Virus record (IMG/VR): IMGVR_UViG_2936514734_000001
Location: 1-64,000 of that record
DNA from: a virus
Taxonomy: Duplodnaviria > Caudoviricetes
Direction: 5' to 3' (one strand)
Length of the DNA: 64,000 nucleotides
Positions 2,489-52,736 of this stretch are shown one piece after another. Within the stretch, counting starts at the first letter, position 1, and each line of letters starts with the position of its first letter. The notes below the pieces were generated by a model. It had not been told where the DNA came from. It saw only the letters and a list, made by a program, of their open reading frames with translations, and did not search any database. The translations under genes and the position numbers were made by a program.

Positions 2489-2496
2489 ACACATAA

Positions 2497-2535
2497 AACG
2501 GCGCTCATTCTTTTTAGGATGGCGTCGTTATTTTT
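2497..2535 (+). terminator. Intrinsic terminator-like hairpin
   Basis: aacggcgc...gcgtcgtt stem followed by attttt, just after a stop codon. Confidence 0.55.
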
Positions 2536-2553
2536 ATAGGAGGGTATTTATAT

Positions 2554-9915: not shown

Positions 9916-9917
9916 AC

Positions 9918-9955
9918 AGAAGAGAGTTAACTTTTTGTTAGCTCTTTTCTTTTAT
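9918..9955 (+). terminator. Intrinsic terminator-like hairpin
   Basis: agaagagagttaac-ttttt-gttagctcttttct followed by ttt. Confidence 0.65.
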
Positions 9956-9975
9956 CAGAAAAAAGAGGTGAGCAC

Positions 9976-15900: not shown

Positions 15901-17307
15901 TTTGAATTACGCTCAACACTGTTTTTCGGAAAACCATATTGGAGAGCCGCTTATCAATATGATTCTCGATATGAGTTCGATGCTGCTAATAAGACATGGG
16001 CAAGACATCTAGTAAAAGAAGCTAGAAGACCATATATGCAACACAAGTTCTACACTTCAGCCTATGACATCATCGAAAACAATATTAGAGCTTCTGAAGA
16101 AAATATCTATACAAACGTAATTGTTAACTATGACGGTAAACAAACTCCTGTATTGTATGCTGATGCGGATATCCGTTATGACAAGCAAAAAACTCGTGTA
16201 GTAGAAGCGGATATTGTTGCTAAGTTTGCTGATTATTACACCTCTGAAGTAGTCGCTACTTACTACGGCAACTCTGCTCTTCGTGATAATCTAAAAGACA
16301 TGTACAAAGGTAATTTACTTGTTATGGGTGACCCAACAGTTAAGCCTCATGACATGATGTACATCGGTGATGAAATCAATGATTTACAAGGAAACTGCCT
16401 AGTGAAATCTGTAACCCACCATTTTAGTTTAGAGACTGGATTTGTTACATCAATTGAACCGGATTTACTTATTGTCAATGATGACCAAGTTATCCTTGAA
16501 CTAGGCAAGTGGTATTACAGTTTTGCAAGTTCGATAGGGGCTACACTGGCAATGCGTTATGCTGCTAAGAAAGCAACCCGTAACCTAGTGAATTGGTTAA
16601 TGAAGCCTAATGGTGTACCTGTAGGTGTTGGGAAATGGGTATCTACAAAAGGTTTAAGACACACAGTGAGTCTAGCAAGCGACGGCAGTAAAGATTTTCA
16701 AGACATCTTGAAAACAATTGATCAAATCATTGCTTCTGGTGATAAAGATGTAAGTGCATTGCAGACCAAGTTAGCAGGTCAATTTGATACAGCGGCGCAA
16801 AATCTACAAAAAGCAACGGGCAAAGCGGGTATTATAAAAGATACATCTAGAAAGGCTGTTCTTAAATCAGGTGCATCCTTTATGAGAACTCTCGGTGGTA
16901 CTTCAAATATTGCTAAAGTAGGTTTGAGTGCAACGAAAATAGTAAGAGGAGTAGCTTCAATAACTCCTGTTGGCTTCATTGTTAACTCTGCGTTATGGGT
17001 AGGAAGCGAAATGTTATTTGAACATTATCGTCGATACAAAGAAAACCTACAGTGTGTAATCTGTATTCCTCTGACATATCGAGGACAAGAGCTAACAGCT
17101 GGTATCAACAATCATGCAGGTATGGTTTATGGAGACAATCCGGGCCGTTACGATAGATTGTTTGACGCTACATTTGGTTCAGATGATGGTGAAGCTGAAG
17201 ATATCTTTGGTAACTCATTATTCGAACTCGCTAACTTCTTTAGTGGATCAGGTGGAGTATACTCTGACCCTGAGAAGACAAAAGAATTAAATAGTCTTGG
17301 TAAATAA
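9976..17307 (+). CDS. Giant baseplate hub fusion: thermonuclease + two tube-like domains + degenerate SLT + gp27/gpD-like hub
   Basis: VTDGDTIDV, IRFNGVDTPE and YGRYVADVY (SNase); ARIHLRMGYG...VFNGTITE and GDPTVKPHD...VKSVTHHFS...GFVTSI (hub); lies upstream of spike and wedge genes. Confidence 0.75.
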   Translation: MKEKILITSLARVSKNTPWRVGIYTNDNYTFFNVGEKGNVAMSPRFNMFLDAVEKKVTRYPVDVSFHPIKDNREMEITKIRDQIVYVDCGFTANRLIPNARFYYDKEVFSNPLAIKQQKTQDTSGMFSVMDVSENIASTALQYIAVGRVEQVTDGDTIDVTLLKTSDFLSSRFDTNEKVTIRFNGVDTPEKYQEGAEEYKDPKNTKFGKLYGVTMQDMYTVGGEAYEYTKKLLGWNSSNKPLVILNFDRQKDGDDPMMDAGYGRYVADVYATSEKNAEIAMEKVEQGKSFVHVPKTLLTTKSKSFPQVPLGLFQYEFAYDGSSILNPFDWVSELGLKGFDPGNQYTPDNLQSDTDPDVSSGDVQVYDTNLNTDTINFSSTDGPTSNNLDFFEPYDDRLGDFTKGIKSVADLKKHSKVRIGDVILTIPPTSIEVNKTSNISKVKTLRTKSSVLVNRGQTLTTLSLNLYFHDLESINGTQYPWRKDYKKGEKQKHFFVDGLRPLLAQFTKTPFVPIDNYYINDVLGIRDVALMDIEVTTVPNFPESLTATLTLVEFNCEAYLMDQGTLGDSINYPLMRWFYNQAMANRGEKYRYFKGLDAPIKSDISFTLADEEFLSKRKEAIQYIKKADSPEKVRVEMKTKNTSYKAKKEDEKVLSKIVSQYEVYSKANIKKYTVIDYFNKPGLNGPSNSIAGQLIEKYGIKKETADNAILEGIELFTEMYDGKYKNETTVLKNQNIFLPYESRLYYKSRFDWTGLEGFFTNYDEEPPVDYSEEPYKGQESKGLVLFDKLTDIDNQAKLEKKFKKYYDSGKGRFMIPASSDAMKTIKEVANSAKDMMDSVDAYEEEFNEILGIIDASEAGIPMKEFEISGSMIPISLNARFSNEYSISHVQSGEAATLQYMGGGDPYVDLILEVDEDAAKDINRLVAISDYYAKTYNQGITNGYIGIQNDLAQLFGIRYIMFENLSINTVPNFPDRYQIMIRAIGFDKTQRQREELTALPGNTDHMDIDMLTENKGAFASDRMIESRLHQLEVYPDLELPTYNQLNKDLAEFDAGSIKEYVNLNGGTYVDPDFYFSTVSTFRKMVEEEYTSEHRLNMFDATGVAAYTSSTDAEQVFNTTDTDWKKLQDMQTTEGVEPIGWVFRWGEGQQETQETATASTGTLAAEQGGTLSAQNPDVQSFLTAQENGAPTYNKFPTLEEWNKLFPKNDYVYNLYSSQPGADETLIYQELSYQIDKYFKKYYSAPNFIKECRGDLKDADKSKKRVSYSVPNDFYAMYFDYQRRTQRSFKEVAKIDELTKDKKITRPSETDSVDAADFRKTDKKITKERFMTLFKAFLDKMSGWQHYKGKGPLVSKTGRVGLAQVDITGKDMTVDEVKRLMYNWRYNLEVAVKQLLGHFKKAKKLNDDCTNFEVFCRPWDAMFALYEKPDAKLLRSSDVEDSDFASGIMSRFTAYATKPFNTFSGFNEEVYKQFAGLSMEEQTSVGGGNETDYVNSLLELEYYDQSVLKKAGLTIKSDKKNIKKAMKKYLSEQTKETLYEIYQKHLKFLYELGKSDSTAEKVIDGVSWLNPANLAGGVAHKVTDKATDFLFSDKKDKNGYEYSKEIIEKGSKLYESIRNLDKTAESSQASTDTRLFNDVDPHTIYQEMFYDLRYHDQRGRMLRAFPGFQMFIIQEGDYFGKYKFWDNMYGFNAIQSIDVHRSRKIAADTAVISMTNVYSNLTTRRTDVDYVDRQLKWWDNYIWNEIPKDLIDKKENEIHKNIYLETGARIHLRMGYGANASSLPVVFNGTITELEIGDLIDIVAQGDGVELGNVISGDPDDDNDGLFNVTEPRDLICSLLSSKGSWFKDFMNNVSDGQLFRQNPLGIMHFGQPFDTNDSTAAKPLGNLLWYNDEYGEVAQNIYSSNGSPTFSQWLHPNGERNDIFHDFSWKRLWDNKFKILNPGDEKNVVVKFYNNTVWDIIQTIAYTSPDYIAAVMPFELRSTLFFGKPYWRAAYQYDSRYEFDAANKTWARHLVKEARRPYMQHKFYTSAYDIIENNIRASEENIYTNVIVNYDGKQTPVLYADADIRYDKQKTRVVEADIVAKFADYYTSEVVATYYGNSALRDNLKDMYKGNLLVMGDPTVKPHDMMYIGDEINDLQGNCLVKSVTHHFSLETGFVTSIEPDLLIVNDDQVILELGKWYYSFASSIGATLAMRYAAKKATRNLVNWLMKPNGVPVGVGKWVSTKGLRHTVSLASDGSKDFQDILKTIDQIIASGDKDVSALQTKLAGQFDTAAQNLQKATGKAGIIKDTSRKAVLKSGASFMRTLGGTSNIAKVGLSATKIVRGVASITPVGFIVNSALWVGSEMLFEHYRRYKENLQCVICIPLTYRGQELTAGINNHAGMVYGDNPGRYDRLFDATFGSDDGEAEDIFGNSLFELANFFSGSGGVYSDPEKTKELNSLGK

Positions 17308-17400: not shown

Positions 17401-18879
17401 ATGACCAAAATAGATAAGAAGGATTACAACCGAAAACAATATATAAAGAAGTTGTCAGAAGGAAAAGAAGTCTATGCTAAACGTAAGGACTTTGTAGCGA
17501 ACTTCTCTTTGAAGAAAACAAAGTCTACCAGTGAATCTACTAATGCAAGTGGAGAAACATCTGGTGGAGGTGGTAGTGTTCAACTTAATGGTGAAATGCC
17601 GACTGTATCTCAATATCAAGGCCCCGATAATTATTATGACAAATTAATTAATGGCAACTATCAAACTGGACTTAAGAACAAGATTGCTGGAACAGATAAA
17701 TGGAATAAAGATATTAAAGAGCAGTGTGCTAAAGCAGGCGTAAACCCTTTGTTGGTAAAAGTGATTATGGCTACTGAGTCAGGTGGAAATCATAGTTCAA
17801 AGCCTAACCCTTGGAACTGTGTAGGATTGATGCAAGTTCAGGGAGCAACAGCCAAAAGCTTAGGATTGAACTGGGATAAGGTTCGTAATGACCCTGTTTA
17901 TAATATTTATGCGGGGTGTATGGTGCTGATAAGTAAACATAAATACGCTGGCGACATAATCAGAAATAACGGAAGTAAATACGCTGGGTATAAAAACCGT
18001 GGGTTTGTACTTAAACAAAACTGTCATGGAGTCGCTTGGCTTTTCAATGGTTTTAGTGTACCTAGCGGAGGAAGTAATAAAGTTACTACCGGTGGTTATG
18101 TTTATGGAAATCAAATTGTAGCTATGCTTAAAGGGTTTGGACGTGACGGAAATACTGATACGGTTTACTCAACAGATGTTTTAGGAGGGAGCGGAAGTTC
18201 ATCAAGTTCTACTTCAAGTTCAACTTCAACCCCAAGTTCAACTAAGGCTTCTTCTAAATCAATTATGTCTATAATGGCTGATGAAACAAATACCTCTATA
18301 AACACCGATTATCCTATAAGAGAACCTTTAAGTAAGGAAGAAGAGGAATTTTTACAGAAAGAACGTTTCTCATATCGTGTACCTATAGGTTATCTAAAAG
18401 GTAATTATTTTTATCCTCCTAAGTATCTTCGAGAAAAGTATGTTGAAGACAGAAAGCTGTCGGATCTATTTGTTAATTTAACAAACTATTCTCCATTACC
18501 ATCAAATGAATTTATTCATATATCAGGTGCACAGGAAAACTTTTATTCCCAAGAAGCAAGGCAAGTATTTTTGTTGTTAAAACAACGACTAGGATATAAA
18601 CAAATGATGATAACCAGAGGGTTTGAGCCTGAAGGAAATAATAACGAGTCCTCACATTCTGTTGGAATAGCTATGGATATATATGTTGATTCTGCAAAAG
18701 AGGCAATTAGGATAGCAGACACTGCATGGTTATTGGGAATTAGGTCAATTGCTATTGGGCCAAAGTTTGTACATCTAGATGTTGGTCCGGAATCAGTTTG
18801 GGGGTACGACAAATTAGGAATATATAGAGGCCCTGGAACATTGAAGGTAGGTGGAATAGAACATGGCTTCAGACGATAA
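17401..18879 (+). CDS. Virion peptidoglycan hydrolase: SLT lytic transglycosylase + peptidase M15-like domain
   Basis: VIMATESGG, GLMQV, YNIYAG (SLT); SSHSVGIAMDI...FVHLD (M15). Confidence 0.85.
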   Translation: MTKIDKKDYNRKQYIKKLSEGKEVYAKRKDFVANFSLKKTKSTSESTNASGETSGGGGSVQLNGEMPTVSQYQGPDNYYDKLINGNYQTGLKNKIAGTDKWNKDIKEQCAKAGVNPLLVKVIMATESGGNHSSKPNPWNCVGLMQVQGATAKSLGLNWDKVRNDPVYNIYAGCMVLISKHKYAGDIIRNNGSKYAGYKNRGFVLKQNCHGVAWLFNGFSVPSGGSNKVTTGGYVYGNQIVAMLKGFGRDGNTDTVYSTDVLGGSGSSSSSTSSSTSTPSSTKASSKSIMSIMADETNTSINTDYPIREPLSKEEEEFLQKERFSYRVPIGYLKGNYFYPPKYLREKYVEDRKLSDLFVNLTNYSPLPSNEFIHISGAQENFYSQEARQVFLLLKQRLGYKQMMITRGFEPEGNNNESSHSVGIAMDIYVDSAKEAIRIADTAWLLGIRSIAIGPKFVHLDVGPESVWGYDKLGIYRGPGTLKVGGIEHGFRR

Positions 18880-20557
18880 GAAAAGAACCTATAATCTAGA
18901 AATCTATAAAAAGAAATTAAGAGAAGCAAAAGATGTTTATAAGAAACGAAAAGAGTTTATTGCTTCATTCCGATTACCTAAAACAGAGGAAGAGGAGGAA
19001 GAAGCAAACGCTGAAACAGGTAATGGTAACGCAGTAGGTGATCAAGGGCTTGGTAGTGAAGGTTCAGCGGCTGCCGCTACCTACTATCTAAACAACTTTC
19101 GTGTCTCTACTCCATTTGCTCCAGATGGAATTCAAGATGGCGTCCACAAAAACGGACATCGGGGTATAGATTTAGCTAGTAAGGATGGTAAATCAATTCT
19201 AGGAAAACCTATTGTATCTCTTACTGATGGAACTGTAGTTGAGGTCTTAATTAATAGTTCAGATGCAGGAAATGGTGCACGAATTAAAGCTCCTAATGGA
19301 TATCTGTATTCATATATTCACATGCAAGAAGCTCCTATGGTTAAGGTTGGCGACACAGTAACTGCTAACCAGCAAATTGGGAAAATCGGAAGCACCGGGC
19401 ACTCGACCGGGCCACATTTGGACCTCAAGGTAAAAAATGAGAAAAATGAGTACATAGACCCATACGCATTACTGCAAGAGTTAGCAAAAGGAAGTTCTAG
19501 CAACACAAGCGGCGGCGGTGGAGATGATGGTAAAGGTCTAATTTCTCTCGCAAAAACTAAGATGAAAGCTCCTTATGTATTTGGTGCAGCGGGGCCTAAC
19601 ACTTTTGACTGTTCAGGTTTTGTGTGTTGGGTTTACAACCAACGAGGTTACAAGTTTGGTAGATCAACAGCCGCTGGTTATTACTCAATGTTTCAAGCTA
19701 CATCCAATCCTAAACCTGGCGATCTTATATTCTTTAGTAATACGTATAAACCTGGTGTATCCCACATTGGTATATGGATGGGAGGAAATGAATTCATTCA
19801 TACTGCCAATAAAAGAAATGGTGTTCAAATTTCTCAATTGACTGGTTACTACAAAAATAAGTTTACTGGATTCAGAACAATTCAAAGCTCCTACTATAAA
19901 GGAGGAGGTTCTTCTAAAAGCCTAGCAATAAAGACAAGAGCAGAAAGTTTTGCCGCTTTAGATTCTGTAGGAGAAGTTGGAGATAGCGAAACATATCCTC
20001 CTATTGAAGAAGAAGGTTCGTATGAAAGCAAAAACAAAGTAGTTTATTCTTATAATCCAGTTCGCTTTATAGGAAATTCTATACGTCAATCAAGTGATAC
20101 AAGAGAAGTGTTCTTACATAACCGTGTAGGGTGGGCTAGATCCATAAACTACGAACAGTTTGAGTCATTAAATAAGGAATTGTTTATACATCAAGAACAT
20201 TATGATGGGCATGAAGGAAACTTATATTCTCCGGACGCAAAAAAGCTATTTGAAAACTTGCTTTTGAAAACTAAAAAACCTTACTTTGAAGTCATTAGCG
20301 GATTTAGATTTAGTAATCAAGGGCAGATTTCTCCACATGAAGCAGGGTGTGCCATAGATATACTCGTTAGAGAAATTGACGAAGTAAGAGAAATAGCGGA
20401 TTGTGCATGGATGCTTGGCGTAAGATCAATAGGCATAGGTGGAGATTTTGAGCAAAAGAAAGGGTTCATACATTTAGATATTGCACCAAAAGGTGATGAC
20501 TTTATGTACGATGGAATTCCTATTTATGGTGGACCCGGAAAGTGGGTGAGTCAATGA
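18863..20557 (+). CDS. Virion peptidoglycan hydrolase: M23 + NlpC/P60 + M15-like domains
   Basis: HRGIDL...YIHM...STGPHLD (M23); FDCSGF...HIGI...FIHT (NlpC/P60); SPHEAGCAIDI...FIHLD (M15). Confidence 0.88.
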   Translation: MASDDKKRTYNLEIYKKKLREAKDVYKKRKEFIASFRLPKTEEEEEEANAETGNGNAVGDQGLGSEGSAAAATYYLNNFRVSTPFAPDGIQDGVHKNGHRGIDLASKDGKSILGKPIVSLTDGTVVEVLINSSDAGNGARIKAPNGYLYSYIHMQEAPMVKVGDTVTANQQIGKIGSTGHSTGPHLDLKVKNEKNEYIDPYALLQELAKGSSSNTSGGGGDDGKGLISLAKTKMKAPYVFGAAGPNTFDCSGFVCWVYNQRGYKFGRSTAAGYYSMFQATSNPKPGDLIFFSNTYKPGVSHIGIWMGGNEFIHTANKRNGVQISQLTGYYKNKFTGFRTIQSSYYKGGGSSKSLAIKTRAESFAALDSVGEVGDSETYPPIEEEGSYESKNKVVYSYNPVRFIGNSIRQSSDTREVFLHNRVGWARSINYEQFESLNKELFIHQEHYDGHEGNLYSPDAKKLFENLLLKTKKPYFEVISGFRFSNQGQISPHEAGCAIDILVREIDEVREIADCAWMLGVRSIGIGGDFEQKKGFIHLDIAPKGDDFMYDGIPIYGGPGKWVSQ

Positions 20558-21507: not shown

Positions 21508-21996
21508 ATGAAAGTAGATTTTCGTTTTTCTTCTGAAGGAGATTTAGAATTAGGTTCTCCAAGCTTTAATGATTTAGGAGAGTTACTGTATGTTAATCCT
21601 CTTGGGGAAGTTTCCACTGATAGTTCGGAAGGTGAATTAATTAGAGACATACCGCTACAAGTCTCATATCTAAGTGAAAAGCAAGTTATTATCAATCGTC
21701 TAAGAACTGATAACCCTGATTGGTTGTTGCATCCTGAAATAGGAGCGAATTTATCTGACTTAGTTGGGCTACCAAATACAAGAGCCACAGGCGAAAAAGG
21801 AAGAGAACTTATTGAAAACAGTTTAACTAGTGATGGATTTATTAATATCAGTGACCTAACAGTGAGACCTGTGCCGATAAGTTCTAGTGAGATTTTATTT
21901 CATATAACTGTCAAAAGAAATACAACAGATTTAGTAATGCCTGTACTCTTTGATTTATCACATGGGTTACTAACTGAATACGAGGTGAACAACTAA
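21508..21996 (+). CDS. gp25/GpW-like baseplate wedge (sheath initiator)
   Basis: QVIINRLRTDNPDWLLHPEIGANL motif; size and position. Confidence 0.8.
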   Translation: MKVDFRFSSEGDLELGSPSFNDLGELLYVNPLGEVSTDSSEGELIRDIPLQVSYLSEKQVIINRLRTDNPDWLLHPEIGANLSDLVGLPNTRATGEKGRELIENSLTSDGFINISDLTVRPVPISSSEILFHITVKRNTTDLVMPVLFDLSHGLLTEYEVNN

Positions 21997-22796
21997 TGAG
22001 AAAGTCACAAAATGAAATGCTCGAAAGTGTTCTAACAAGATTGAGAACACAAGCTGGTATTACCGAAACAAGCCCTGGATCTATTGCACGAATGTTTGCA
22101 GAGATAATGATACAAGAGTTTAGTCCTTTTTATGATGAACTAGATTTAGCTACTTCTATGGGATTTGTTTCAACCGCTACTGGCACATATCTTGATTTGA
22201 TTGGTGAATTATTAGATTGTGCTAGAAATGAAAATGAAGACGACGAAAATTATCGCGCAAGAATCAGCAATCAAGTATCCGTGCAACAAACTGCAAATTT
22301 AATCTCCTTACGTTTAAAAGCCCTTCAAATAGACGGCGTAGCGGATGTTCAGTTCAAACGATTCACACAAGGTACAGGTTCGTTTACTTGCTACGTTATT
22401 CCCCAAGTATACCCCATTACTACAGATGTTCTAATCCAAGTAGAAAACGCTCTTAACGATACAGCAGGATATGGTACGGCTGTTGAAGTAAAGGTTAGCG
22501 ATTATAGCCCTGTAGACATCACCATGAATTTAATTTTCAACTCCAAAACAACTACCCTCGAAAGACAATATATCCGAAATCAAGTTGTTCAAAATGTAAG
22601 TGCCTATATGAAAGGGTTAAATATGGGTTCACCAATCATCATTAATGAGATTATACAGCGTGTCATGGAAACAAGTGAGCAGATTCTTGATATGGAAATC
22701 AAAGAGCTTGTTGTTTCGGACAAGCAGTACTTTATTAAGAATATTGAGCCTTCTATAGAAGAACGATATTTCTTACGTACAATCAATGTAGCTTAG
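21996..22796 (+). CDS. Baseplate J-like wedge protein (short form)
   Basis: PGSIAR...TATGTYLDLIG...EDDENYRARI...GVADV motifs. Confidence 0.82.
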   Translation: MRKSQNEMLESVLTRLRTQAGITETSPGSIARMFAEIMIQEFSPFYDELDLATSMGFVSTATGTYLDLIGELLDCARNENEDDENYRARISNQVSVQQTANLISLRLKALQIDGVADVQFKRFTQGTGSFTCYVIPQVYPITTDVLIQVENALNDTAGYGTAVEVKVSDYSPVDITMNLIFNSKTTTLERQYIRNQVVQNVSAYMKGLNMGSPIIINEIIQRVMETSEQILDMEIKELVVSDKQYFIKNIEPSIEERYFLRTINVA

Positions 22797-42219: not shown

Positions 42220-42417
42220 ATGAATTATCCTTTAGGAGCTTTTCAGTACTATGACAAAGAAAATGATAAAACTCATATTCAGTGGAGTTATGTAGATGAC
42301 CCTAATTTAACTCATTTTGAAATTGAAGTTTACGATGAAAATTTAAGAAAATGGGTTAAGGCTGATGGACGTAATGGAGTTTATCCAAAACAATCGAAAA
42401 GAGGTAGTAATTATTAG
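42220..42417 (+). CDS. Small FN3-fragment-like hypothetical protein
   Basis: THIQWSYVDDPNLTHFEIEVYD; RBS gggagtg; the start could alternatively be 42214. Confidence 0.5.
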   Translation: MNYPLGAFQYYDKENDKTHIQWSYVDDPNLTHFEIEVYDENLRKWVKADGRNGVYPKQSKRGSNY

Positions 42418-42445
42418 GGGGGCGGTTAATTCCGTCCTCTTTTTT
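42416..42445 (+). terminator. Intrinsic terminator
   Basis: aggggggcgg-ttaatt-ccgtcctct followed by ttttt. Confidence 0.75.
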
Positions 42446-42506: not shown

Positions 42507-45500
42507 ATGGAACAGGAATTAGAGTTTCCTCTAGCTTATTCCTCATTTATACGTAAAAAAGATGCTGCCTATGACGGAGACCCTAATGGGGATTATGTTA
42601 TGGCGGAAGATGTCAATGAACTGCAAGAGTCTCTTGAAAGACTAGAACAGGTTGTTGGTGTCGAAGAATTAGATAATCCAGTTTCAACTGAACTGAAGAA
42701 GAAAGTAGATAAGGATGCAATTAGTGATTTTGGTAGTCCCTTATTTATAAACTACAACGGTTCTTCTATTAACACATACGATACGATAGAAAAACGTATC
42801 AGTGCCTTCAGTTACATTCCTCATGTAATGATAAAGAAAGAAACATCCTCTACTTTTGATTATTTCATTCAAGAAGTAAAAAGAAGCGGGACATTGCTAT
42901 ACGGTATTATTAATTGTAGCGGAGCCACTGCTAATGCTATCGAAGCAGATATTGATTGGTTTAAATCAAAAGGCTTTTATGGAATTGTCTTTTCTAACTT
43001 CGGTTTTGAAAATGGATTAACAAGAAGTCTGCAAAATACTGTTTTACAATATGCCCACACTAAAGGTCTAGTGGCGATCATAACAGGCGAAATTGAAACA
43101 ACACTCTTCAATAAACCTCATGCAAAAAATCCTCTACAAGAAGACCTCCACACTGCAAAAGGCGATATTTATTTAGCCCAAGACATTTTTATTATAAACG
43201 GAGCTAAGAATGATCCTTCTGTTATTACAAACCAACTCATTAACCTAAATAAAGCTCAACAGGAAAAAGGTGTACAAGTATTTGTAGAAGATGTAGCGGA
43301 TATAAGTACAGATAATGGTCCAAATTATTTATATGGGAAACTCTTGTCTACCCTCTACAATTTAGACGGTTATAGCCTTGCACCTAAGAGTCGATATGCT
43401 TTAAACGAGAAAGTTGAAAAGTATATTCATGGTTTTGAATTAGGTCAATGGAAAACGGAAAGTCCAATATATGTAGAAGATACCACGTCTGTCTCTCGTA
43501 CATTCTCTAAAGGTAATATCGTATTCGATAAGGTCAAGAATGAATGCTTTGTAGAAGGAGTAGGTCTTGCACCGACTTTATATACTTGGCAAGATAAGCA
43601 GATTCCTGGAGCTGCAGTTGACTTAAAGACATCTGATTACGATGATGGTGTAGTAAATGCCATTGTAAAAGCCATTAACGAACACGATGAATTAATTCAC
43701 TACACAAAGATTGACGGACTGAACTCTGACGGTTCAACTCCTGATGTTATTAAAGACATTGTAATTAGAGCGATCAATAACTCTCCTGCAGCTGTCCTAA
43801 AAAATCCTCCTAATGGTTATGACGAAATAGCGGGCAATAATTTTATTCATGGTGGAGTTATTGACTGGATTGATGCAGGCTCAATTAAGACAGGTACACT
43901 AAATATCGATCATATCAAAGCAAACATTATCGAAGCTATTAATGCCTATATTGGTACTGCTCGTATTGATTCTGCTCGTATTGGTGAACTATCAGCAGAC
44001 CACATTGCTGCTAATGTAGTGGATGCAATTAATATCTATGCAACGAATGCAAGCATTGAACATGCAAAAATCAACAATGCTGTTATTGGTGAATTATCAG
44101 CAGAACATATACAAGCCTCTGTTGTAGAAGCTATTAATCTATATGCCGGAAACGCTACAATTGATTCTGCAAAAATAGGAATATTAGAAGCAGATAAAAT
44201 CACTACAAATGTTATTAAGGCGATTAACGCTTACGTTGGAAATGCAGTTATAGATTCTGCGAAGATTGGAACACTTGAAGCTAGTCATATCAAAGGCATG
44301 GTTATTGATGCGATTAACCTATATGCTGGTTCAGCTAAAATTGAATCCGCTCAAATTGGTGCATTAAAAGCTGAGAATATTGAAGCAGGACTTATTGAAG
44401 CTTTTAAAGTTTCTGCAACTAGTGGACAGTTTGATAATTTACAAGCGGCAGTTATAGATGCGATTAATGCGAGTGTACAGAACGCATTTATCAATGGAGC
44501 CCTTATTGAAAAAGGCTCGATAGGTAATGTTCAAATTGCTGAAGGTAGTATTACTGATGCTCAGATCGTAGACTTAACTGCTAACAAGATTAAGTCAGGT
44601 ACTATCGATACTGGACAAGTTACTCTTCAAGGTAAGAATGGGCATCTAAGAATTACAGGAAATAGATTGCAAGTTTTTGATGATCAAGAAGTTCCTGTAG
44701 AACGTGTAAGTATTGGTGACGTAGATGTAGATGGAAGTCTTTATGGACTTCGTGTACGTGGTGCTGATGGTAAAACTGTTCTCTATGATGAAAATGGAGT
44801 TTATTCAGAAGGTATCACAGATGGAGCAATTACTAATCCAAAGATTAAAGAAGGCGCAATCGATGGAGATAAACACATTGCTGCAAATACAATTTCTGCT
44901 GATAAGCTAGTAGCCGAAACAATAACTGCTAGAGAAATTAAAGCAAAAAGCATAACGGCTAATGAGATCATGGCAAATGCGATAACTGCATCTAGCGGTA
45001 TTATCGCAAAAGGTGCGATTGGAACAGCTGAGATTGCTGAAGCTTCAATTGTTGATGCCCACATTAAAGAATTAAATGCTACTAAAATTACTGCTGGTTC
45101 AATGCAGATGACTAGTCGAAACATGCTATCCAATGCTAGTTTCAAGAAAGGTTTTCTTGATTGGACGGTAGATCCTCGTTTTAATATTGCGGAAGTAAAT
45201 GAAATTAACAAATTAAACGGAAGCAATAGCATTCATATTGTAACCCTCAATTTAACTACTCAACCATACTACAGTGTTTACTCAAATTATTTTCCTGCTA
45301 GTGAAGAAGAGAGCTATTCTGCTTCTGTTTACGTAATGACAAAAGACCTCAGTTCTTATCAAGGAAAACAACCATCTGTACGTCTTGAATATTACAATGA
45401 TACAGATCGTTTGTCTTATAAGTACACGACAGCTGAACTTACTGGAACAGATACTTGGGTTCGAATCAGCGTAACAGACAAGGCTCCCGCTGGAACAACG

Positions 45501-46028
45501 AGAGTTCGATTCCGCCTATGTACGCCTCAAAATGGTGACACATATTATGCGAGACCAATGTTACAGAAAGGTACTATTGTGACAGAGTGGACTGGTGACG
45601 GTTCATTTATGTCTGAAGACGGTATCTATACTGGTGAATTAAACGCGGAGCAAATCGTTGCCGGAAAAATTAAAGCAGAATTAATTGAAGTTGGGGCTGA
45701 CACTAACTTCCAAGATGGATATAGTCCTGACGATCTTCGTGAGGAGATGGAAAATCGCATTCCATATCGAGTAGAAATTATCAGCACCAACGGATTGATG
45801 TTTAGACGTAACACTGTCAATACGACTTTAAAAGCAACAGTCTATAGAGGCCCTGACAATGTTACTGATCAAATCGATGCTAGCAACTTTGTCTGGAAAC
45901 GAGTTGGTGCAGATGGTGAAGATGATGCACTTTGGAATGAAGCACATAAAGGGATGAAATCGGTCACAATCACGAAAGATGATGTGTACCAAAGAGCTAC
46001 CTTTTTATGTGAAATATTGGATAGTTAA
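42507..46028 (+). CDS. Fibre base protein: anchor motif, degenerate glycoside-hydrolase-like barrel, pentapeptide-periodic shaft, CBM-like domain, C-terminal incomplete Ig domain
   Basis: Start reassigned to ATG 42507 (RBS aggtga); MAEDVNELQ; 30-aa IDSA.IG.L.A.HI...V..AIN.Y repeats; NMLSNASF; ends ATFLCEILDS. Confidence 0.65.
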   Translation: MEQELEFPLAYSSFIRKKDAAYDGDPNGDYVMAEDVNELQESLERLEQVVGVEELDNPVSTELKKKVDKDAISDFGSPLFINYNGSSINTYDTIEKRISAFSYIPHVMIKKETSSTFDYFIQEVKRSGTLLYGIINCSGATANAIEADIDWFKSKGFYGIVFSNFGFENGLTRSLQNTVLQYAHTKGLVAIITGEIETTLFNKPHAKNPLQEDLHTAKGDIYLAQDIFIINGAKNDPSVITNQLINLNKAQQEKGVQVFVEDVADISTDNGPNYLYGKLLSTLYNLDGYSLAPKSRYALNEKVEKYIHGFELGQWKTESPIYVEDTTSVSRTFSKGNIVFDKVKNECFVEGVGLAPTLYTWQDKQIPGAAVDLKTSDYDDGVVNAIVKAINEHDELIHYTKIDGLNSDGSTPDVIKDIVIRAINNSPAAVLKNPPNGYDEIAGNNFIHGGVIDWIDAGSIKTGTLNIDHIKANIIEAINAYIGTARIDSARIGELSADHIAANVVDAINIYATNASIEHAKINNAVIGELSAEHIQASVVEAINLYAGNATIDSAKIGILEADKITTNVIKAINAYVGNAVIDSAKIGTLEASHIKGMVIDAINLYAGSAKIESAQIGALKAENIEAGLIEAFKVSATSGQFDNLQAAVIDAINASVQNAFINGALIEKGSIGNVQIAEGSITDAQIVDLTANKIKSGTIDTGQVTLQGKNGHLRITGNRLQVFDDQEVPVERVSIGDVDVDGSLYGLRVRGADGKTVLYDENGVYSEGITDGAITNPKIKEGAIDGDKHIAANTISADKLVAETITAREIKAKSITANEIMANAITASSGIIAKGAIGTAEIAEASIVDAHIKELNATKITAGSMQMTSRNMLSNASFKKGFLDWTVDPRFNIAEVNEINKLNGSNSIHIVTLNLTTQPYYSVYSNYFPASEEESYSASVYVMTKDLSSYQGKQPSVRLEYYNDTDRLSYKYTTAELTGTDTWVRISVTDKAPAGTTRVRFRLCTPQNGDTYYARPMLQKGTIVTEWTGDGSFMSEDGIYTGELNAEQIVAGKIKAELIEVGADTNFQDGYSPDDLREEMENRIPYRVEIISTNGLMFRRNTVNTTLKATVYRGPDNVTDQIDASNFVWKRVGADGEDDALWNEAHKGMKSVTITKDDVYQRATFLCEILDS
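43870..44470 (+). repeat. About six imperfect 30-aa (90-bp) coding repeats
   Basis: IDSARIGELSADHIAANVVDAINIYA / IDSAKIGILEADKITTNVIKAINAYV / IDSAKIGTLEASHIKGMVIDAINLYA; boundaries approximate. Confidence 0.75.
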
Positions 46029-46156
46029 ATATTGCACAGTTCAGTAGCAATTGCTTACTTTCTATGAGCCACCAAAAAAATAAGACAGAAGGGTGGAGGA
46101 CTATGAGAATCGGAGACTCATTACCTAGCATACTCAGTACAGACGGAGGTAATCAA

Positions 46157-47896
46157 ATGACAATTGCTACTGGACAAATTAGTATCGTAGACTTTAACGA
46201 TGCTCCCTCGTTAACCGCATTTGTTTCAACAACTTCCCCAAAAACACAAATTTGGGACCCAGCAACACAAAAATTCACACCAGACTGGACATCTTCTAGT
46301 CCTACTCTACAACCCTCACTTTTTGTATCCTCAGAAGGTACAACAGACCAAATTGCAACTGCAAAATCAGTTAAGTGGTTTGACTCAGCTGACCTCACTA
46401 CAGCTCTTGTGACTGGTGGAGCTTATACAGTCACTGGCTCTACATTAAAGGTTTCTCAAAACATTATGACTGGATCTATTTACGCTAAGACATTTATTTG
46501 TGAAATTATTTGGACAGACCCAGCTACACTTGTTGATTTAACAGTTCGTGCTGAATTCACATTTAACCGAGCGGACAATGGTAAAACTGGTCCAAGTGCT
46601 ATTTCAGCCGTATTAAGTAACGACTCTGACGTTATTCCAACGGATAGTGCTGGTAACAACGGAAACTTCACAGGTGCACTTTCTACAATGTATATCTATG
46701 AAGGTGCAACAGATGTAAGTTCTAGCTGGACAGTTACAGCGAATGCTGTTGATGTTACTGGTACACTATCAGGTAGAACATATACAGTAACTGGATTTGC
46801 ATCAGGTAAAGATACAGGCTATGTAGACCTTACAGCTTCAAGATCAGGCTACGCTTCTATTACAAGACGTTTTGCTTTAAGTAAAAGTAAACAAGGTACA
46901 GCGGGTACAACACCAACTCTTTACCGCTTAATTCCTAGCGTAAATGCAATTGCTAAAAACATCTCAGGGGTTTACAATCCAACAACTCTTACTTTGACAG
47001 CTAAATCGCAAACAGGTAACGGTGCTTATGGTGATTACTCAGGTAGATACCAAATCTGGGAAACTACTGATGGAACAAACTGGGGCACTGCTAAATATAC
47101 AAGTACTGCAAACGAGGCCTCAAAAACTTGGACGCCAACAGCAGGCATTAAAGCAATTAAAGCACAGCTTTATATTGCAGGTTCTACACCAAATGGAACA
47201 GGGTTCTTAGATGAACAAATTATCCCTGTAGTTTCTGACGGTGCCACTGGTGCGGCCGGTGCCGATGCAGTATTAGTATCCGCTTGGGCTCCATCAGGTA
47301 ACCTATTCAAGAATGACTTAAGTACATCCCTAACAGCTCAAGCTGATCTATACAAAGGTGCTACTGTTCAAACATCTGGTGTAACATACGAATGGTTTGT
47401 TCAAAAATCAGGAAATGCAGATGAAGGAGCAGGTGCAGGTTGGGATAAGCTAGATTCTACTAACCAAGCTTCATATGGTGTAACAGGTGCTGTTAATACT
47501 TCTACTATTACAGTTACAGCTGCAGGTATCGTTAACTTAGCTGCTTTTAAAGTTAAAGCAACGTATGGCGGTAAAGCATACTATGACACTATTATTTTCT
47601 ATGACCAAACTGATCCAATCATGGTTGTAGTTGAAAGTAGTAACGGAAATATCTTTAAAAATGGACAAATTTCTTCTCAATTACTTTGCCGCTTATATCA
47701 AAATGGTGAAGAAATTGATCCGAAACAATCAACTGCTACGACAGGCTATAAGTATACATATACTTGGACAAAGCTTGGGCGTGACGGAAACCAAGATATG
47801 ACGTTCGGTGGTTCTGGTACTAAAAAAGGAAAATGGATTGATATTACTGATGCAGATATCTATCAAAAAGCCGTATTTAAAGTTGAAATTACTTAA
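46157..47896 (+). CDS. Multi-Ig-domain fibre subunit (putative polymerising shaft)
   Basis: Start reassigned to ATG 46157 (RBS ggaggt); N-terminus MTIATGQISIVDFND; five Ig-like units; ends AVFKVEIT. Confidence 0.7.
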   Translation: MTIATGQISIVDFNDAPSLTAFVSTTSPKTQIWDPATQKFTPDWTSSSPTLQPSLFVSSEGTTDQIATAKSVKWFDSADLTTALVTGGAYTVTGSTLKVSQNIMTGSIYAKTFICEIIWTDPATLVDLTVRAEFTFNRADNGKTGPSAISAVLSNDSDVIPTDSAGNNGNFTGALSTMYIYEGATDVSSSWTVTANAVDVTGTLSGRTYTVTGFASGKDTGYVDLTASRSGYASITRRFALSKSKQGTAGTTPTLYRLIPSVNAIAKNISGVYNPTTLTLTAKSQTGNGAYGDYSGRYQIWETTDGTNWGTAKYTSTANEASKTWTPTAGIKAIKAQLYIAGSTPNGTGFLDEQIIPVVSDGATGAAGADAVLVSAWAPSGNLFKNDLSTSLTAQADLYKGATVQTSGVTYEWFVQKSGNADEGAGAGWDKLDSTNQASYGVTGAVNTSTITVTAAGIVNLAAFKVKATYGGKAYYDTIIFYDQTDPIMVVVESSNGNIFKNGQISSQLLCRLYQNGEEIDPKQSTATTGYKYTYTWTKLGRDGNQDMTFGGSGTKKGKWIDITDADIYQKAVFKVEIT

Positions 47897-47924
47897 TTAA
47901 AGGGTTTCTATATAAGCAAAGCAT

Positions 47925-47955
47925 AACTCCACTATCAATTTAGTGGAGTTTGTTT
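47925..47955 (+). terminator. Intrinsic terminator
   Basis: Perfect stem aactccacta-tcaatt-tagtggagtt followed by tgttt. Confidence 0.7.
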
Positions 47956-47978
47956 ATTATTGAAAAGGGTGTGAAACT

Positions 47979-50900
47979 ATGCCTCTAGCAAATGGACAAA
48001 TAACCATTGTCGATTTAAATGATGCAATATTGTCAGGTACTGCACCTGCTAACCCCGTAGAAGGAACTCTATGGATAGACACAAGTGTTGATCCAAATAA
48101 ATTATATAGCTGGAACGGCTCTAACTGGATTGAACAGACACTTTCAGTCTCAGCTCTTGATCCGGATTTCGATCAACAGGTACAAGACTTAAAAGACTTT
48201 GCAAAGAATGCAGCAGACGATGGGATGCTTTCTTCTGGTGAAAAACTAAATATCAAACTTTTATTAGTAGAGATCACAGGTGAAACTATTTTTGATTCTA
48301 CTTTACCAACCTTAACCGAAATAGATGCTTCTAAGGCAGGGCAGGTATACATGATTAGAGCTGAAGCAAAGGCAGCGGGTATTCCTACTAATCAATCAGA
48401 CTATACTGCTTTTGAGACTGCTTATGCCGATTTAAAGGTATATTTAGAATCTTTAACACCTAGACCGTGGGATAAAGGAAACACTGTTATTGACCCTGTA
48501 GATTGGGCAAATGCTTGGGACTCGTATTATGACAAGCTAACAAAGCTCCAAGTTACTACCTCTACCTACCTTGCAAACAGTGTAAAACCTGGAGAAGATT
48601 ATAACGGTGTAAAAATGACTAAAGAACAAGGGGTTGTAGTTTTAAGAGGTGACAATTTATTTAGAACTACTCTTAATGCAACTCAAGGTTTAGCTATTGA
48701 AAAAAACAATTCAGGTACATGGGTTAAAGTTTTCTATACAAACACAGACGGTAAGATGTATGCAACTAGTTTAGTAATTGACTCAACCTCAACTATTGCT
48801 GGTACAACTGCAAGTACAGTTAGAGATAATGCGGCTAATGGTTTAGCAAATGCTAATACAGCGAATGATAAAATATCTTTAAATACAGATACAAATAACT
48901 ACAACCCAAATCCTTCATTTGAGGGTAAGAAGAACACGTATTACACAGCATGTACTGCTTTTGCAGCCAGCGATTCAGGTGTTCCAGCAGGCGCACCTAA
49001 GCCGTATGTAGGTCGTCAAACTGGACGTGATAATTACATTAGTGACTTCTTCTCTGTTAAAGCAGGTGAGAAGTTTATTGTAGAAGGTTGGATTGCAAGT
49101 ACTGATAGTGCGTACAATTTTGGTTTAGGTTTAAATGCACAAGATAATGTAGGAACTAATACATGGCTTGTAAGTAACCATAAACCCAAAGGAGATGGAA
49201 CGTGGCAATATTTCAGTAACACGTATACAATCCCTTCAACCGCTACTAAAGCACGATTCTTTTCTCAAATTAATGCAACTTCTAGTTTTGGTAACTGGTT
49301 CTTTACTGATGTAAGAATTACAAAAGTAATTGTAGATGATGTAATTTCAAGTGCTTCAACATGGAATACAGCAAAAGATAACGTCAATGACATGCTGAGC
49401 GATCTAAAAGTGACACCTCTCGAAAAGAGTCAATTGAGTCGAGATTGGGAAGCAATAAAAGCTGAGTATACTTCATTGATAGGATTAGCTAATTCCGTGT
49501 CATCCACTTTATCAACCCCTATTTCTTCTTCTGCTTACACTAATGCCTATAACAATCTTAATGGGTCATCTCCAAAGATTCAGTCTGAAATCCTAGCAAA
49601 TATGAATACCACTTATACGTTTGCTTCTACAAGTGCTAGAGATACTTTCAAAACTCAAATGAATACGTATTTCTCTGAATCCGAAAAGCTAAAAACAACG
49701 ATAAACGACAAGATTAACGGTACAGCTAAAGGTGCAAGTGATAAGATTGATAACCTTAAAGTTGGTGGTAGTAATATTATGCCTAACTCTTCTGGTGAGA
49801 TTGATAGCGATGGAGATGGTATACCTGATAACTGGTCCATCTTTCAACAAGCAAGCAATTTAACTAGGGACGTTGGAAGGCTAAGCGGTTACTCTCTTAA
49901 GGCAACAGCTAATGCTAACCCGGGATCTGCAATTAGAAGTCCTTCAACCAGTATCAGAGGTGGAGAAACATATACTGTTTCTTTATGGATGAAGCGAAGC
50001 AATGATGGTGATTTATCTAATTTAATTAAATTTCGAAATGCTTCTGGCACTGAGTCTAATCCATTCCCAGCACCTACTGTTCAAGCAACAGCAGGAACAT
50101 GGACATTTATATCTCAAACAGTAACTGCTCCAAGTGATGCCGTGCTTATGTATCAAACACCACGAATGAACACATCACCAGATGGTACTAACTTTTGGGT
50201 AGATGATGTTCAAGTTGAAGTAGGTAATGTCGCTACAGATTGGAGTGCGGCTCAAGCTGACATAGATTACTTTATTAGTAGTGTACAATCAGCTGCAGAT
50301 AGCGCACAGAATACTGCGAACACTGCGATTAAACAAGGATATGTTGTAACGAACCCTATCTTTTCAGATTGGAAAGGAACATTCCCAAATTATTTTTCCG
50401 CTTGGTCCAATTCTACTGTTGCTAAAGAAACATCTCTAACACGAACGGGATCAGCAATGCGTTTCAATGTAGCGGCAGATACGAGCCAAGTTGGGGCACA
50501 AATTACAAGTGGGTTCTTCATTCCGAAGCTACCAAATAATAAATATTACGCCATGGAACTAGACTTTATGTTAGTTAGCGGATCTATTACAGGGGCCGCT
50601 GTTCTACTTGATTGGAATGGAATGAATCCATATCGAGCTACAGTGAATTTATCCGAGTATATCTCAAACCCTTCATTAAACACATGGTATACAGTAAGGG
50701 CTATAGTAAAAAGACCTACTGATACTCTCACTGGATATACAGCTATGTCTGGTTATTTAATGGCTAACTACTCCGGATCAACAACCAATAAAGCAAAGAA
50801 CATAATTTATGACCGATTAGTTTTCAGAGAACCTACTTCTGAAGAAATAGCTGCATACGAAGTAACTCAGATTGTGAACGGTCGAGTGGAAGTAGATGGT

Positions 50901-52736
50901 GGTAGACTAACAGCCAATTCTGTTAAAGCTGAATCTATTGATGCAAAAAGGTTAAGTGTGAAAGATAACAATGGAACACAAACCTTTTTAATCGATAATA
51001 ATGGACAAGTAACAGTTAACGGCAAAGTGTATATTAACAGTAATTCAATCTTTGCTGAGGGCTACGATCCTTCAATTACTCCGGGTGGGCGTAACGTTCT
51101 ATTAAATTCTCGATTCTCTACAGCAGACTTTACAGGATGGACACCATGGAACAGCCCTGCCACAAAAGAAGTAATTGATATTACAGACTTGCCAGGTTTT
51201 GATAAAGCAGTTAAGTTTGTGCTAACTGATAAAAACCAAGGTTTACTTCAAAACGTATCCGTTATAAAAGGTAATAAATATACTATCTCAGCTTATGTAA
51301 AGGCAGATAGTGGACAGCCTGTTCTACAGGTTTTTGATGGTTCTGCTTGGCCTAATGTTGCTATGTCTACGTCTGATGTCGGAACAGGGAATTGGGTGAG
51401 ACTATCCAAAGTCTTCGTTGCAAACGCAACAACTGTTCAGGCACAAATCGGTCGAGGCGGTGGCGGAGCCAACGGAACATGCTACTTCACCGGGGTTAAG
51501 ATTGAAGAAGGGGATAAAACAACTGGTTGGTCTGCATCTCCTGAAGATATTGATAAATTATTTGATGCAGTGGTTTCACCTGATGGGACAATTAAAGCTC
51601 GTGATATTGCTTCTTCATTAGCCGTTACACCTGAAGCAATTCAATTTATCAGTCAAGCAATTGACTTAAAGGGTAAAGTAACATTTAGTGATTTAGCTCA
51701 AGGATGGGCTTATGACGAAAATGGTAATAAGATTAATAACTCTGACCAGCCTGACTATGATCCCGCTAATCCTCTTTACCTCACAACAGATGGATATTAT
51801 CGCCCGCTTTCAGATGAAAACCTATTCCTTTCTAGTGTATTCACAACTGACGATGCAGGTAAAACTGTTATCGATGGTAACTTCATTAAGACAGGTACAA
51901 TCCAAGCAAAATATGCAGACTTCATGGATTTACAAGTGTTTAATGCTAATGGAGAGTTATCGTTATGGATTGATACTAATGGAAACCTTTCAACGGTTGG
52001 TACTTCTAAATCAGCAGGATATGAAGCAGGAAAGAAAGGATGGAAGATCGATGCTAACGGAGAAGCAGAATTTAACTCTGCATTATTCCGTGGAGATATT
52101 GAGTTAGGCTATTATGATGCAGCTACAGATACTTTTAAAGTGTCTGGTGGAGTACAAAGTGGTCAAGATGCATCTGGAAGAGCTCTTCGCTTCTGGGCAG
52201 GAGATAGTATAGACAATGCACCTTTCAAAGTGTTTTCTGATGGTAGCCTCTATGCAACAGAAGGTACTTTTACAGGAACCTTCTCAGGGGTTGTTCAAGT
52301 TGGTAACGTTACAATCCAAGATAACCCTAATGTAGCAGGCGATGCTTCAATCACTATCACAGACAATGCTCTTATTGAAAAGGTTGTACTATCTGAATCA
52401 CAAGTTTCAATTAATACAAACACTACGTTTGGTAATTTCATGAACATAGACATCGATAAACAAAAGTTGTTATTTGGTGATTCAAGTTTTCAACTAGATT
52501 ATCAAAATAATTTAATTCAAATGAATCAATACACAATTCAAGGTACTTCAAGTTTGAACTTTATCTCAGATGGTTCGACTGGTAATGACTTCGTATTTAA
52601 AAGTACACAAGGAGATACAACAGTTTACGCTGAAGGTTCATTTAGTGTACGTGATGATATTTCATTTCTAAATACGATGGTTATGAGAAAAGCATCTGAT
52701 TCAGGTAACAAAGGAATTGACTTTGTGTTGATTTAA
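47979..52736 (+). CDS. Large fibre tip/adhesin with four CBM-like domains and a gpJ-like C-terminal region
   Basis: N-terminus MPLANGQITIVDLND; NPNPSFE, NIMPNSSGE, TNPIFSDW and NVLLNSRF modules; GWKIDANGEAEFNS. Confidence 0.7.
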   Translation: MPLANGQITIVDLNDAILSGTAPANPVEGTLWIDTSVDPNKLYSWNGSNWIEQTLSVSALDPDFDQQVQDLKDFAKNAADDGMLSSGEKLNIKLLLVEITGETIFDSTLPTLTEIDASKAGQVYMIRAEAKAAGIPTNQSDYTAFETAYADLKVYLESLTPRPWDKGNTVIDPVDWANAWDSYYDKLTKLQVTTSTYLANSVKPGEDYNGVKMTKEQGVVVLRGDNLFRTTLNATQGLAIEKNNSGTWVKVFYTNTDGKMYATSLVIDSTSTIAGTTASTVRDNAANGLANANTANDKISLNTDTNNYNPNPSFEGKKNTYYTACTAFAASDSGVPAGAPKPYVGRQTGRDNYISDFFSVKAGEKFIVEGWIASTDSAYNFGLGLNAQDNVGTNTWLVSNHKPKGDGTWQYFSNTYTIPSTATKARFFSQINATSSFGNWFFTDVRITKVIVDDVISSASTWNTAKDNVNDMLSDLKVTPLEKSQLSRDWEAIKAEYTSLIGLANSVSSTLSTPISSSAYTNAYNNLNGSSPKIQSEILANMNTTYTFASTSARDTFKTQMNTYFSESEKLKTTINDKINGTAKGASDKIDNLKVGGSNIMPNSSGEIDSDGDGIPDNWSIFQQASNLTRDVGRLSGYSLKATANANPGSAIRSPSTSIRGGETYTVSLWMKRSNDGDLSNLIKFRNASGTESNPFPAPTVQATAGTWTFISQTVTAPSDAVLMYQTPRMNTSPDGTNFWVDDVQVEVGNVATDWSAAQADIDYFISSVQSAADSAQNTANTAIKQGYVVTNPIFSDWKGTFPNYFSAWSNSTVAKETSLTRTGSAMRFNVAADTSQVGAQITSGFFIPKLPNNKYYAMELDFMLVSGSITGAAVLLDWNGMNPYRATVNLSEYISNPSLNTWYTVRAIVKRPTDTLTGYTAMSGYLMANYSGSTTNKAKNIIYDRLVFREPTSEEIAAYEVTQIVNGRVEVDGGRLTANSVKAESIDAKRLSVKDNNGTQTFLIDNNGQVTVNGKVYINSNSIFAEGYDPSITPGGRNVLLNSRFSTADFTGWTPWNSPATKEVIDITDLPGFDKAVKFVLTDKNQGLLQNVSVIKGNKYTISAYVKADSGQPVLQVFDGSAWPNVAMSTSDVGTGNWVRLSKVFVANATTVQAQIGRGGGGANGTCYFTGVKIEEGDKTTGWSASPEDIDKLFDAVVSPDGTIKARDIASSLAVTPEAIQFISQAIDLKGKVTFSDLAQGWAYDENGNKINNSDQPDYDPANPLYLTTDGYYRPLSDENLFLSSVFTTDDAGKTVIDGNFIKTGTIQAKYADFMDLQVFNANGELSLWIDTNGNLSTVGTSKSAGYEAGKKGWKIDANGEAEFNSALFRGDIELGYYDAATDTFKVSGGVQSGQDASGRALRFWAGDSIDNAPFKVFSDGSLYATEGTFTGTFSGVVQVGNVTIQDNPNVAGDASITITDNALIEKVVLSESQVSINTNTTFGNFMNIDIDKQKLLFGDSSFQLDYQNNLIQMNQYTIQGTSSLNFISDGSTGNDFVFKSTQGDTTVYAEGSFSVRDDISFLNTMVMRKASDSGNKGIDFVLI

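Follow-up and report, generated by a model that had tools for sequence, protein, structure and literature searches.

The genome of the tailed bacteriophage IMGVR_UViG_2936514734_000001 (239,374 bp, judged complete) contains three adjacent genes, here called g1, g2, and g3, at whose boundaries an immunoglobulin (Ig)-like fold appears to be split. All three lie in the first 64,000 nucleotides of the record, which constitute the stretch analyzed here (the window) and in which the large genes are all on the plus strand; the pairs g1/g2 and g2/g3 are in differing reading frames. The features of the locus are collected in Table 1, where “socket” denotes a terminal Ig-like unit without a G strand and “plug” denotes an N-terminal peptide of the G-strand type. 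The g1 protein comprises an N-terminal adaptor-like segment, a candidate Spherulin4-like domain, a repeat region, a region resembling a carbohydrate-binding module (CBM), and a terminal Ig unit. The candidate enzyme domain (PF12138; residues 1–460, window positions 42507–43890) was suggested by a language-model match only (0.79) and is without a Pfam match; Pfam gave no match for g1 or g2. In g3, Pfam identified three CBM_4_9 stretches, in agreement with a preliminary description of this DNA, which had called the protein CBM-rich.

Table 1. Genes, split Ig-like elements, expression signals, and neighboring genes in the window
Feature	Position	Strand	Remarks
g1	42507..46028	+	1173 aa, socket only; homolog in L196 is 1172 aa
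g2	46157..47896	+	579 aa, plug and socket; five Ig-like units (V-set-like); phrog_3267 “tail protein”
g3	47979..52736	+	1585 aa, plug only; N-terminal plug, small conserved β domain, CBM_4_9 modules
Socket 1	45747..46028	+	Last Ig-like unit of g1; stops 2–3 residues past the F strand, without G strand
Plug 1	46166..46201	+	g2 residues 4–15; G-strand-type peptide, predicted to complete socket 1
Cis G strand	47573..47611	+	g2 internal unit 4, residues 473–485; covalent counterpart of the plugs
Socket 2	47603..47896	+	Last Ig-like unit of g2; stops one residue past the F strand
Plug 2	47988..48023	+	g3 residues 4–15; predicted to complete socket 2
Terminator-like hairpin before g1	42416..42441	+	dG −15.5 kcal/mol, z −2.95; brackets g1–g2 together with the post-g2 hairpin
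Ribosome-binding site of g2	46145..46149	+	GGAGG, 7 nt before the ATG (46157), at the end of a 128-nt leader (46029–46156)
Intrinsic-terminator-like hairpin and U-run	47925..47950	+	Between g2 and g3; dG −18.1 kcal/mol, z −5.5
SLT tail lysin	17401-18879		
M23 + NlpC/P60 tail lysin	18863-20557		
Baseplate_J	21996-22796		

An AlphaFold2 model of g2, based on a 42-sequence alignment, shows five Ig-like units with a mean predicted local distance difference test (pLDDT) score of 83.8. In unit 4, the F strand (residues 461–470) is followed by a G strand (residues 473–483). In unit 5 (residues 487–579), strands were assigned to residues 489–494, 506–515, 535–540, 560–564, and 571–578, and the G strand is missing. 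Unit 5 of g2 can be aligned with the last unit of g1, which likewise stops just past the F strand, and a socket profile matched the phage's own genome at positions 45747–46019 and 47603–47893. The same 10-residue motif opens both g2 and g3 (residues 6–15 in each protein), and it corresponds, position for position, to the G strand and linker of g2 unit 4. No plug-type N terminus was found on g1 and no C-terminal socket on g3, and the whole 239-kb genome contains exactly two plugs and two sockets. The preliminary description had proposed that the final strand is missing from the terminal units of g1 and g2, that a motif typical of this strand appears instead at the N termini of g2 and g3, and that g1 is acceptor only, g2 donor and acceptor, and g3 donor only. 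All peptides that it quoted are present in the translations, and the structure model, the g1–g2 alignment, the profile matches, and the genome-wide count of plugs and sockets bear out each of these assignments.

Residues 1–578 of g2 match positions 3–366 of the phrog_3267 profile (E = 3.6e-82), and homologs of g2 are found in the tail modules of Basilisk, Tsamsa-like phages, vB_BcoS-136, and Herelleviridae. When PDB sequences were searched with a profile of the g2 family, the only match was a marginal one to an antibody VH domain, which was not significant (E = 0.09). Foldseek searches with the whole g2 model retrieved generic strings of Ig, FN3, and cadherin domains, including cadherins and calcium-dependent adhesins, and a search with unit 1 alone retrieved V-set domains (VNAR, nanobody) with weak E-values. 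Judged from these weak structural matches, single g2 units resemble V-set Ig domains. The plugs and the internal G strands of g2 end in D-x-N-D followed by A or P (window positions 46190–46207 and 48012–48029, and the internal g2 linkers). Cadherins carry the calcium-binding motif D-x-N-D-N-x-P in their interdomain linkers, and the resemblance suggests, by analogy, that the joints described here could be stiffened by calcium; Pfam gave no cadherin match.

The N-terminal strand of g2 was examined further by truncation. In the full-length model, residues 4–12 form a strand with a pLDDT of about 82. When residues 1–146 were folded alone (38-sequence alignment), the fragment reached a pLDDT of 88.8 and the strands of unit 1 were identical to those in the full-length model; residues 1–18 were then coil, with a pLDDT of 58. 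Repeat phasing would allow the N-terminal strand to be the first strand of unit 1, and this assignment was rejected on the basis of the coil seen in the 1–146 fold. The strand becomes ordered only in the context of the remaining protein; therefore, it is not part of unit 1 and its partner lies elsewhere. As a modeling result, this would indicate that plug and socket are compatible, and not which socket the plug serves in the virion.

Plugs and sockets are found almost only at protein ends. Matches to the donor profile lie within the first 40 residues of an open reading frame (ORF) in 230 of 235 cases, and 180 of 198 distinct socket units end at most 8 residues from the C terminus. An exhaustive search of a library of 1.84 billion proteins with the socket profile yielded 3401 representatives (clusters at 50% identity). 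Among the best 143 of these 3401 representatives, which were looked at in detail, 129 have the socket at most 8 residues from the C terminus, and 56 of these 129 also open with a plug. Because of this restriction to protein ends, the distribution is not due to chance. The gene order socket, plug plus socket, plug was found again in about 160 loci drawn from virus, genome, and metagenome collections; of 80 viral contigs, 33 genome loci, and 79 metagenome loci, most have it. The hosts belong to Bacillota, Bacteroidota (Bacteroides, Prevotella, Alistipes, Segatella, and others), and Spirochaetes, and the order occurs in both siphovirus-type (TMP-Dit-Tal) and myovirus-type contexts. The same three-gene order is present in vB_BcoS-136 and Basilisk, and the Streptococcus thermophilus phage Sfi11 has the triple ORF1000 (Tal), ORF373, and ORF695.

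The remaining 14 of the 143 best representatives, in which the socket is not terminal, are mostly fusions that carry the plug motif in cis after the F strand. In proteins P0236, P0238, P0250, P0255, P0256, P0305, and P0348, the F strand leads through a short loop into the plug motif and on to a g3-type N-terminal domain, all in one chain; these proteins are natural g2–g3 fusions. P0366 is the corresponding g1–g2 fusion, with a socket F strand, a plug motif, and a g2-type unit 1. The PF06605 Tal proteins P0128, P0133, P0140, P0151, and P0180–P0185 have socket, plug motif, and collagen in cis (Pfam did not find PF06605 in g1 of the window), and the g1-like proteins of loci L093, L098, L100, and L105 contain an internal socket followed by a plug motif. 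Further splitting is seen as well. In loci L148–L150, the middle protein is encoded by two genes, the second of which opens with a plug; from residue 16 onward, this second half aligns to g2 from residue 145, which places its plug at the exact site of the unit-1 G strand. Gene cuts in such fibers are thus always located between the F and G strands, with the G strand going to the downstream protein, as predicted by a domain completed in trans and not by independent complete domains. The fused and further-split forms are the strongest evidence for a split joint. A broken single gene was ruled out as an explanation of the split, since each piece has its own ribosome-binding site and start and the split is kept across phyla.

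We consider it probable that g1, g2, and g3 follow one another as segments of a single tail fiber, joined via split Ig domains and fixed in composition. Trans completion of a split Ig domain is well supported by the comparisons described above, and the head-to-tail joining by strand completion proposed in the preliminary description is upheld by the cis fusions, the restriction of splits to the F/G position, and the dependence of the g2 strand on the rest of the protein. Each gene boundary would then represent an Ig-like domain cut between strands F and G: strands A–F would remain with the upstream protein as the socket, and the downstream protein would open with the G strand and a short D-x-N-D linker as the plug. 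After translation, the g2 plug would insert into the last unit of g1 and the g3 plug into the last unit of g2, giving joints that are non-covalent but integral to the fold, and a chain g1–g2–g3 of fixed composition. Within this chain, g1 would be the proximal, possibly enzymatic part, presumably attached to the baseplate; g2 would be a spacer with a length set by the number of Ig units; and g3 would be an exchangeable, carbohydrate-binding distal module. In several g3-type proteins, collagen repeats start only a few residues after the plug, which implies trimeric fibers with three plugs for three sockets; most likely, a fiber would contain three chains of each protein.

Several observations weigh against this arrangement. 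In the full-length g2 model, the partner of the N-terminal strand would, by elimination, be the open edge of unit 5 of the same chain, because unit 5 is the only strand-deficient unit of g2. If the plug folded back in this way in the virion, g2 would be a self-capped, ring-closed monomer, and other contacts would have to hold the chain together. It is true that AlphaFold2 orders the plug of the monomer only when the C-terminal part is present; however, a monomer prediction offers no other socket, so this behavior is expected from the method, and ring closure would deprive both socket 1 of g1 and plug 2 of g3 of a partner, even though these are conserved with g2 everywhere. We regard ring closure as highly improbable.

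The other contrary points concern the pairing of plugs and sockets and the need for completion. Locus L143 has two socket-only proteins for a single plug, L150 has no socket in the gene that precedes its first plug, and L017 has no plug in the gene that follows its plug-plus-socket gene. At L143 (positions 302–10330), the consecutive socket-only proteins (890 and 1258 aa) are followed by one plug-only protein, an arrangement that may be a branch point or provide alternative sockets. Across 63 nonredundant genomes, plug–socket covariation was not above that of non-cognate controls (normalized mutual information, top-10 means: 0.75 and 0.77 for cognate versus 0.77 and 0.71 for non-cognate pairs); these values are dominated by phylogeny and do not set the cognate pairs apart from the controls. 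A six-stranded terminal unit could, in principle, also be stable alone. In that case, the terminal units would be complete folds, and the N-terminal peptide would dock or trimerize elsewhere, for example, in an inter-chain sheet of its own trimer. The few loci with unmatched plugs or sockets fit such a scheme, and the covariation result, although uninformative, does as well. It would leave unexplained, however, why the plug motif is homologous to internal and fused G strands residue for residue, including the spacing to the next domain, why 90% of the library representatives have sockets ending at the F strand, and why plugs and sockets occupy adjacent genes in about 160 loci. We give little credence to a scheme without fold completion.

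The distal protein is exchanged between close relatives. In relatives with a g2 protein that is 60–81% identical to that of the window, g3 is replaced wholesale, being 835, 1585, 2387, or 3034 aa long and having differing binding domains, while the plug is conserved. The exchange loci (L195, 7835–13752; L196, 7839–13758; L198, 3281–5788) retain the same N-terminal plug and small β domain, and the exchanged proteins include one of 3034 aa with F5/F8 type C domains, one of 2387 aa with CBM_4_9, and one of 835 aa. Since distal modules are swapped behind a conserved plug, the joint would act as a connector for exchangeable distal modules.

The expression signals noted in the preliminary description, namely a strong ribosome-binding site, a long leader, and a terminator after g2, are all present (Table 1). 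The hairpin after g2 is kept in the three relatives L195, L196, and L198; in the intergenic region (47897–47978), the sequence of the 10-bp stem and the U-run are retained and the flanks have diverged. The position of this hairpin is the exact border of the g3 exchange between relatives. The preliminary description had read these signals as consistent with a high g2 copy number. The conservation of the terminator, together with the strong ribosome-binding site, would indeed allow more g2 than g3 to be made, but on its own the terminator is no proof of a polymer, and as g1 and g2 are in one transcription unit, it gives no excess of g2 over g1.

The polymer in question would be a shaft in which g2 binds to itself through its own plug and socket, with g1 as anchor, g3 as cap, and a length set by the g2:g3 ratio. 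Such an assembly would be a chaperone-free and usher-free homopolymer of five-bead subunits with a terminator-tuned length, and hence a genuine pilus-like polymer carried by a virus. In favor of it, g2 carries plug and socket together, the plugs of g2 and g3 hardly differ in their strand cores, and the ordering of the g2 plug by AlphaFold2 only with the rest of g2 is compatible with this plug fitting the g2 socket. A candidate lead is the myovirus vB_EalM-132, which has a g2 homolog and for which a tail of “161+160” nm is listed (Table 2 of PMC6483233); the value hints at a long terminal appendage, and the text of that paper is without a description of one.

Most of the comparative evidence points away from self-polymerization. 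The complete genome has only two plugs and two sockets, and a single plug-plus-socket gene is present in 157 of 173 loci. The lengths of the middle genes (about 340, 460, 580, 750, and 905 aa) differ in steps of whole Ig units, and a length quantized in this way would be pointless if copy number set the length. In three loci, two different plug-plus-socket genes stand in series. In the Segatella copri prophage L088 (7526–8575), a second g2 paralog starts with a plug and extends about 16 residues past the F strand; this tail looks like its own G strand, so that the protein, judged by its sequence, would be a natural chain terminator. The two joints also differ from each other. Sockets 1 and 2 of the window are only 28% identical, and the sockets of joint 1 and joint 2 form separate sequence classes that are kept over large distances. 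In the clade of the window, one plug position is invariably F in g2 and either L or I in g3, and in Bacteroidota, the two plugs are unlike each other across the entire second half. Finally, in the cases where collagen follows the plug, trimers are implied in which each socket receives one plug. The self-polymerizing shaft with stoichiometry-set length was thus not sustained, and we judge it unlikely; the fixed chain g1–g2–g3 remains the preferred reading.

From its gene content, the phage appears to be of the roughly 240-kb, contractile-tailed Bacillus/Priestia type, with g1–g3 located within the tail and baseplate module; this context is assigned because two proteins of approximately 2450 aa, tail lysins, and baseplate genes lie upstream (Table 1). 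Its close relatives lie on 235–241-kb contigs of Priestia megaterium, the Bacillus cereus group, and Cytobacillus. One of the large upstream proteins (2443 aa; 9976–17307) matches a large “endolysin” phrog (E = 7e-189) and is followed by the two tail lysins at 17401–20557. This layout, with the 2443-aa protein, SLT, and M23/NlpC/P60, resembles the hub region described for phage 0305phi8-36. The preliminary description had imagined the g2 fiber as perhaps curly, and the curly fibers of phage 0305phi8-36 were considered in this respect; no link was made, as the candidates for those fibers are other genes, near the head module (PMC2147016, PMC4870245). Immediately before g1, a 65-aa ORF without a family match (window positions 42220–42417) lies directly 3′ of the gene for a 1504-aa protein and is followed by the hairpin at 42416–42441; this small gene is kept in L195 and L196.

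Strand donation is well known from the chaperone–usher pili (Fim, Pap, Caf1, Saf), in which the N-terminal extension of the next subunit supplies the missing G strand. As in these pili, the terminal Ig-like units of g1 and g2 lack the C-terminal G strand, and there are acceptor-only, donor-plus-acceptor, and donor-only members, with the strand predicted to be supplied by the N terminus of the next protein. In contrast to the pili, assembly of the phage fiber would be cytoplasmic, with no chaperone, usher, or signal peptides. No chaperone or usher families were found among the 20 window proteins scanned, the N termini of g2 and g3 are the plugs themselves, without a hydrophobic signal segment, and the host is of the Gram-positive type. 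Regarding pilin families, Pfam gave no match for g1 or g2, and the PDB-sequence profile search gave nothing significant. The g2 units are moreover V-set-like, and the chain is most likely a fixed hetero-chain and not a homopolymer. Type V pili of Bacteroidia, TasA fibers, and archaeal threads are likewise built by donating a strand into the β-sandwich of a neighbor; these are homopolymeric and extracellular, and some need proteolytic priming, whereas g1–g3 would form a short hetero-chain in a virion appendage.

The nearest solved precedent may be found, by analogy, in the tripod of Lactococcus phage Tuc2009, in whose crystal structure a sheet of BppA domain 2 is completed by a C-terminal hairpin of BppU, so that a titin-like Ig domain results (PMC4742702). 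In both cases, strands of one adhesion-device protein complete the Ig-like sandwich of another, as solved for Tuc2009 and predicted here. The donor in Tuc2009 is a C-terminal hairpin of two strands acting at a single joint, whereas the donor in g1–g3 would be a single N-terminal G strand, employed in series at two and sometimes three joints, which are kept across phyla. An AlphaFold2 study of S. thermophilus phages described C-terminal extensions of Tal in which an Ig-like domain is followed by collagen-like linkers (PMC9437275). These extensions correspond to a covalently fused version of the module, with a socket unit, the G strand, and collagen or a further fiber; that study describes the domains, but not the split joint or the attachment of downstream proteins. 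The papers on Tsamsa, Basilisk-like, and Lake Elmenteita phages gave no usable stoichiometry or fiber description for g2 homologs, the phi812 baseplate paper contained no matching joint, and the searchable literature yielded no account in which phage fiber proteins donate N-terminal strands serially to one another.

If the joints work as inferred here, they would explain how unassigned Ig-like “tail proteins” are attached between the Tal or baseplate fiber and the receptor-binding protein. This would concern large Bacillus phages, dairy phages of S. thermophilus, and Bacteroides, Prevotella, and other gut prophages. The module is common (3401 representatives) and is found in several phyla and in more than one type of virion. 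Since close relatives keep the plug but carry different distal proteins behind it, the joint resembles a standard connector by which host-recognition modules can be exchanged, and this reading of the sequences would be useful for understanding the evolution of host range.

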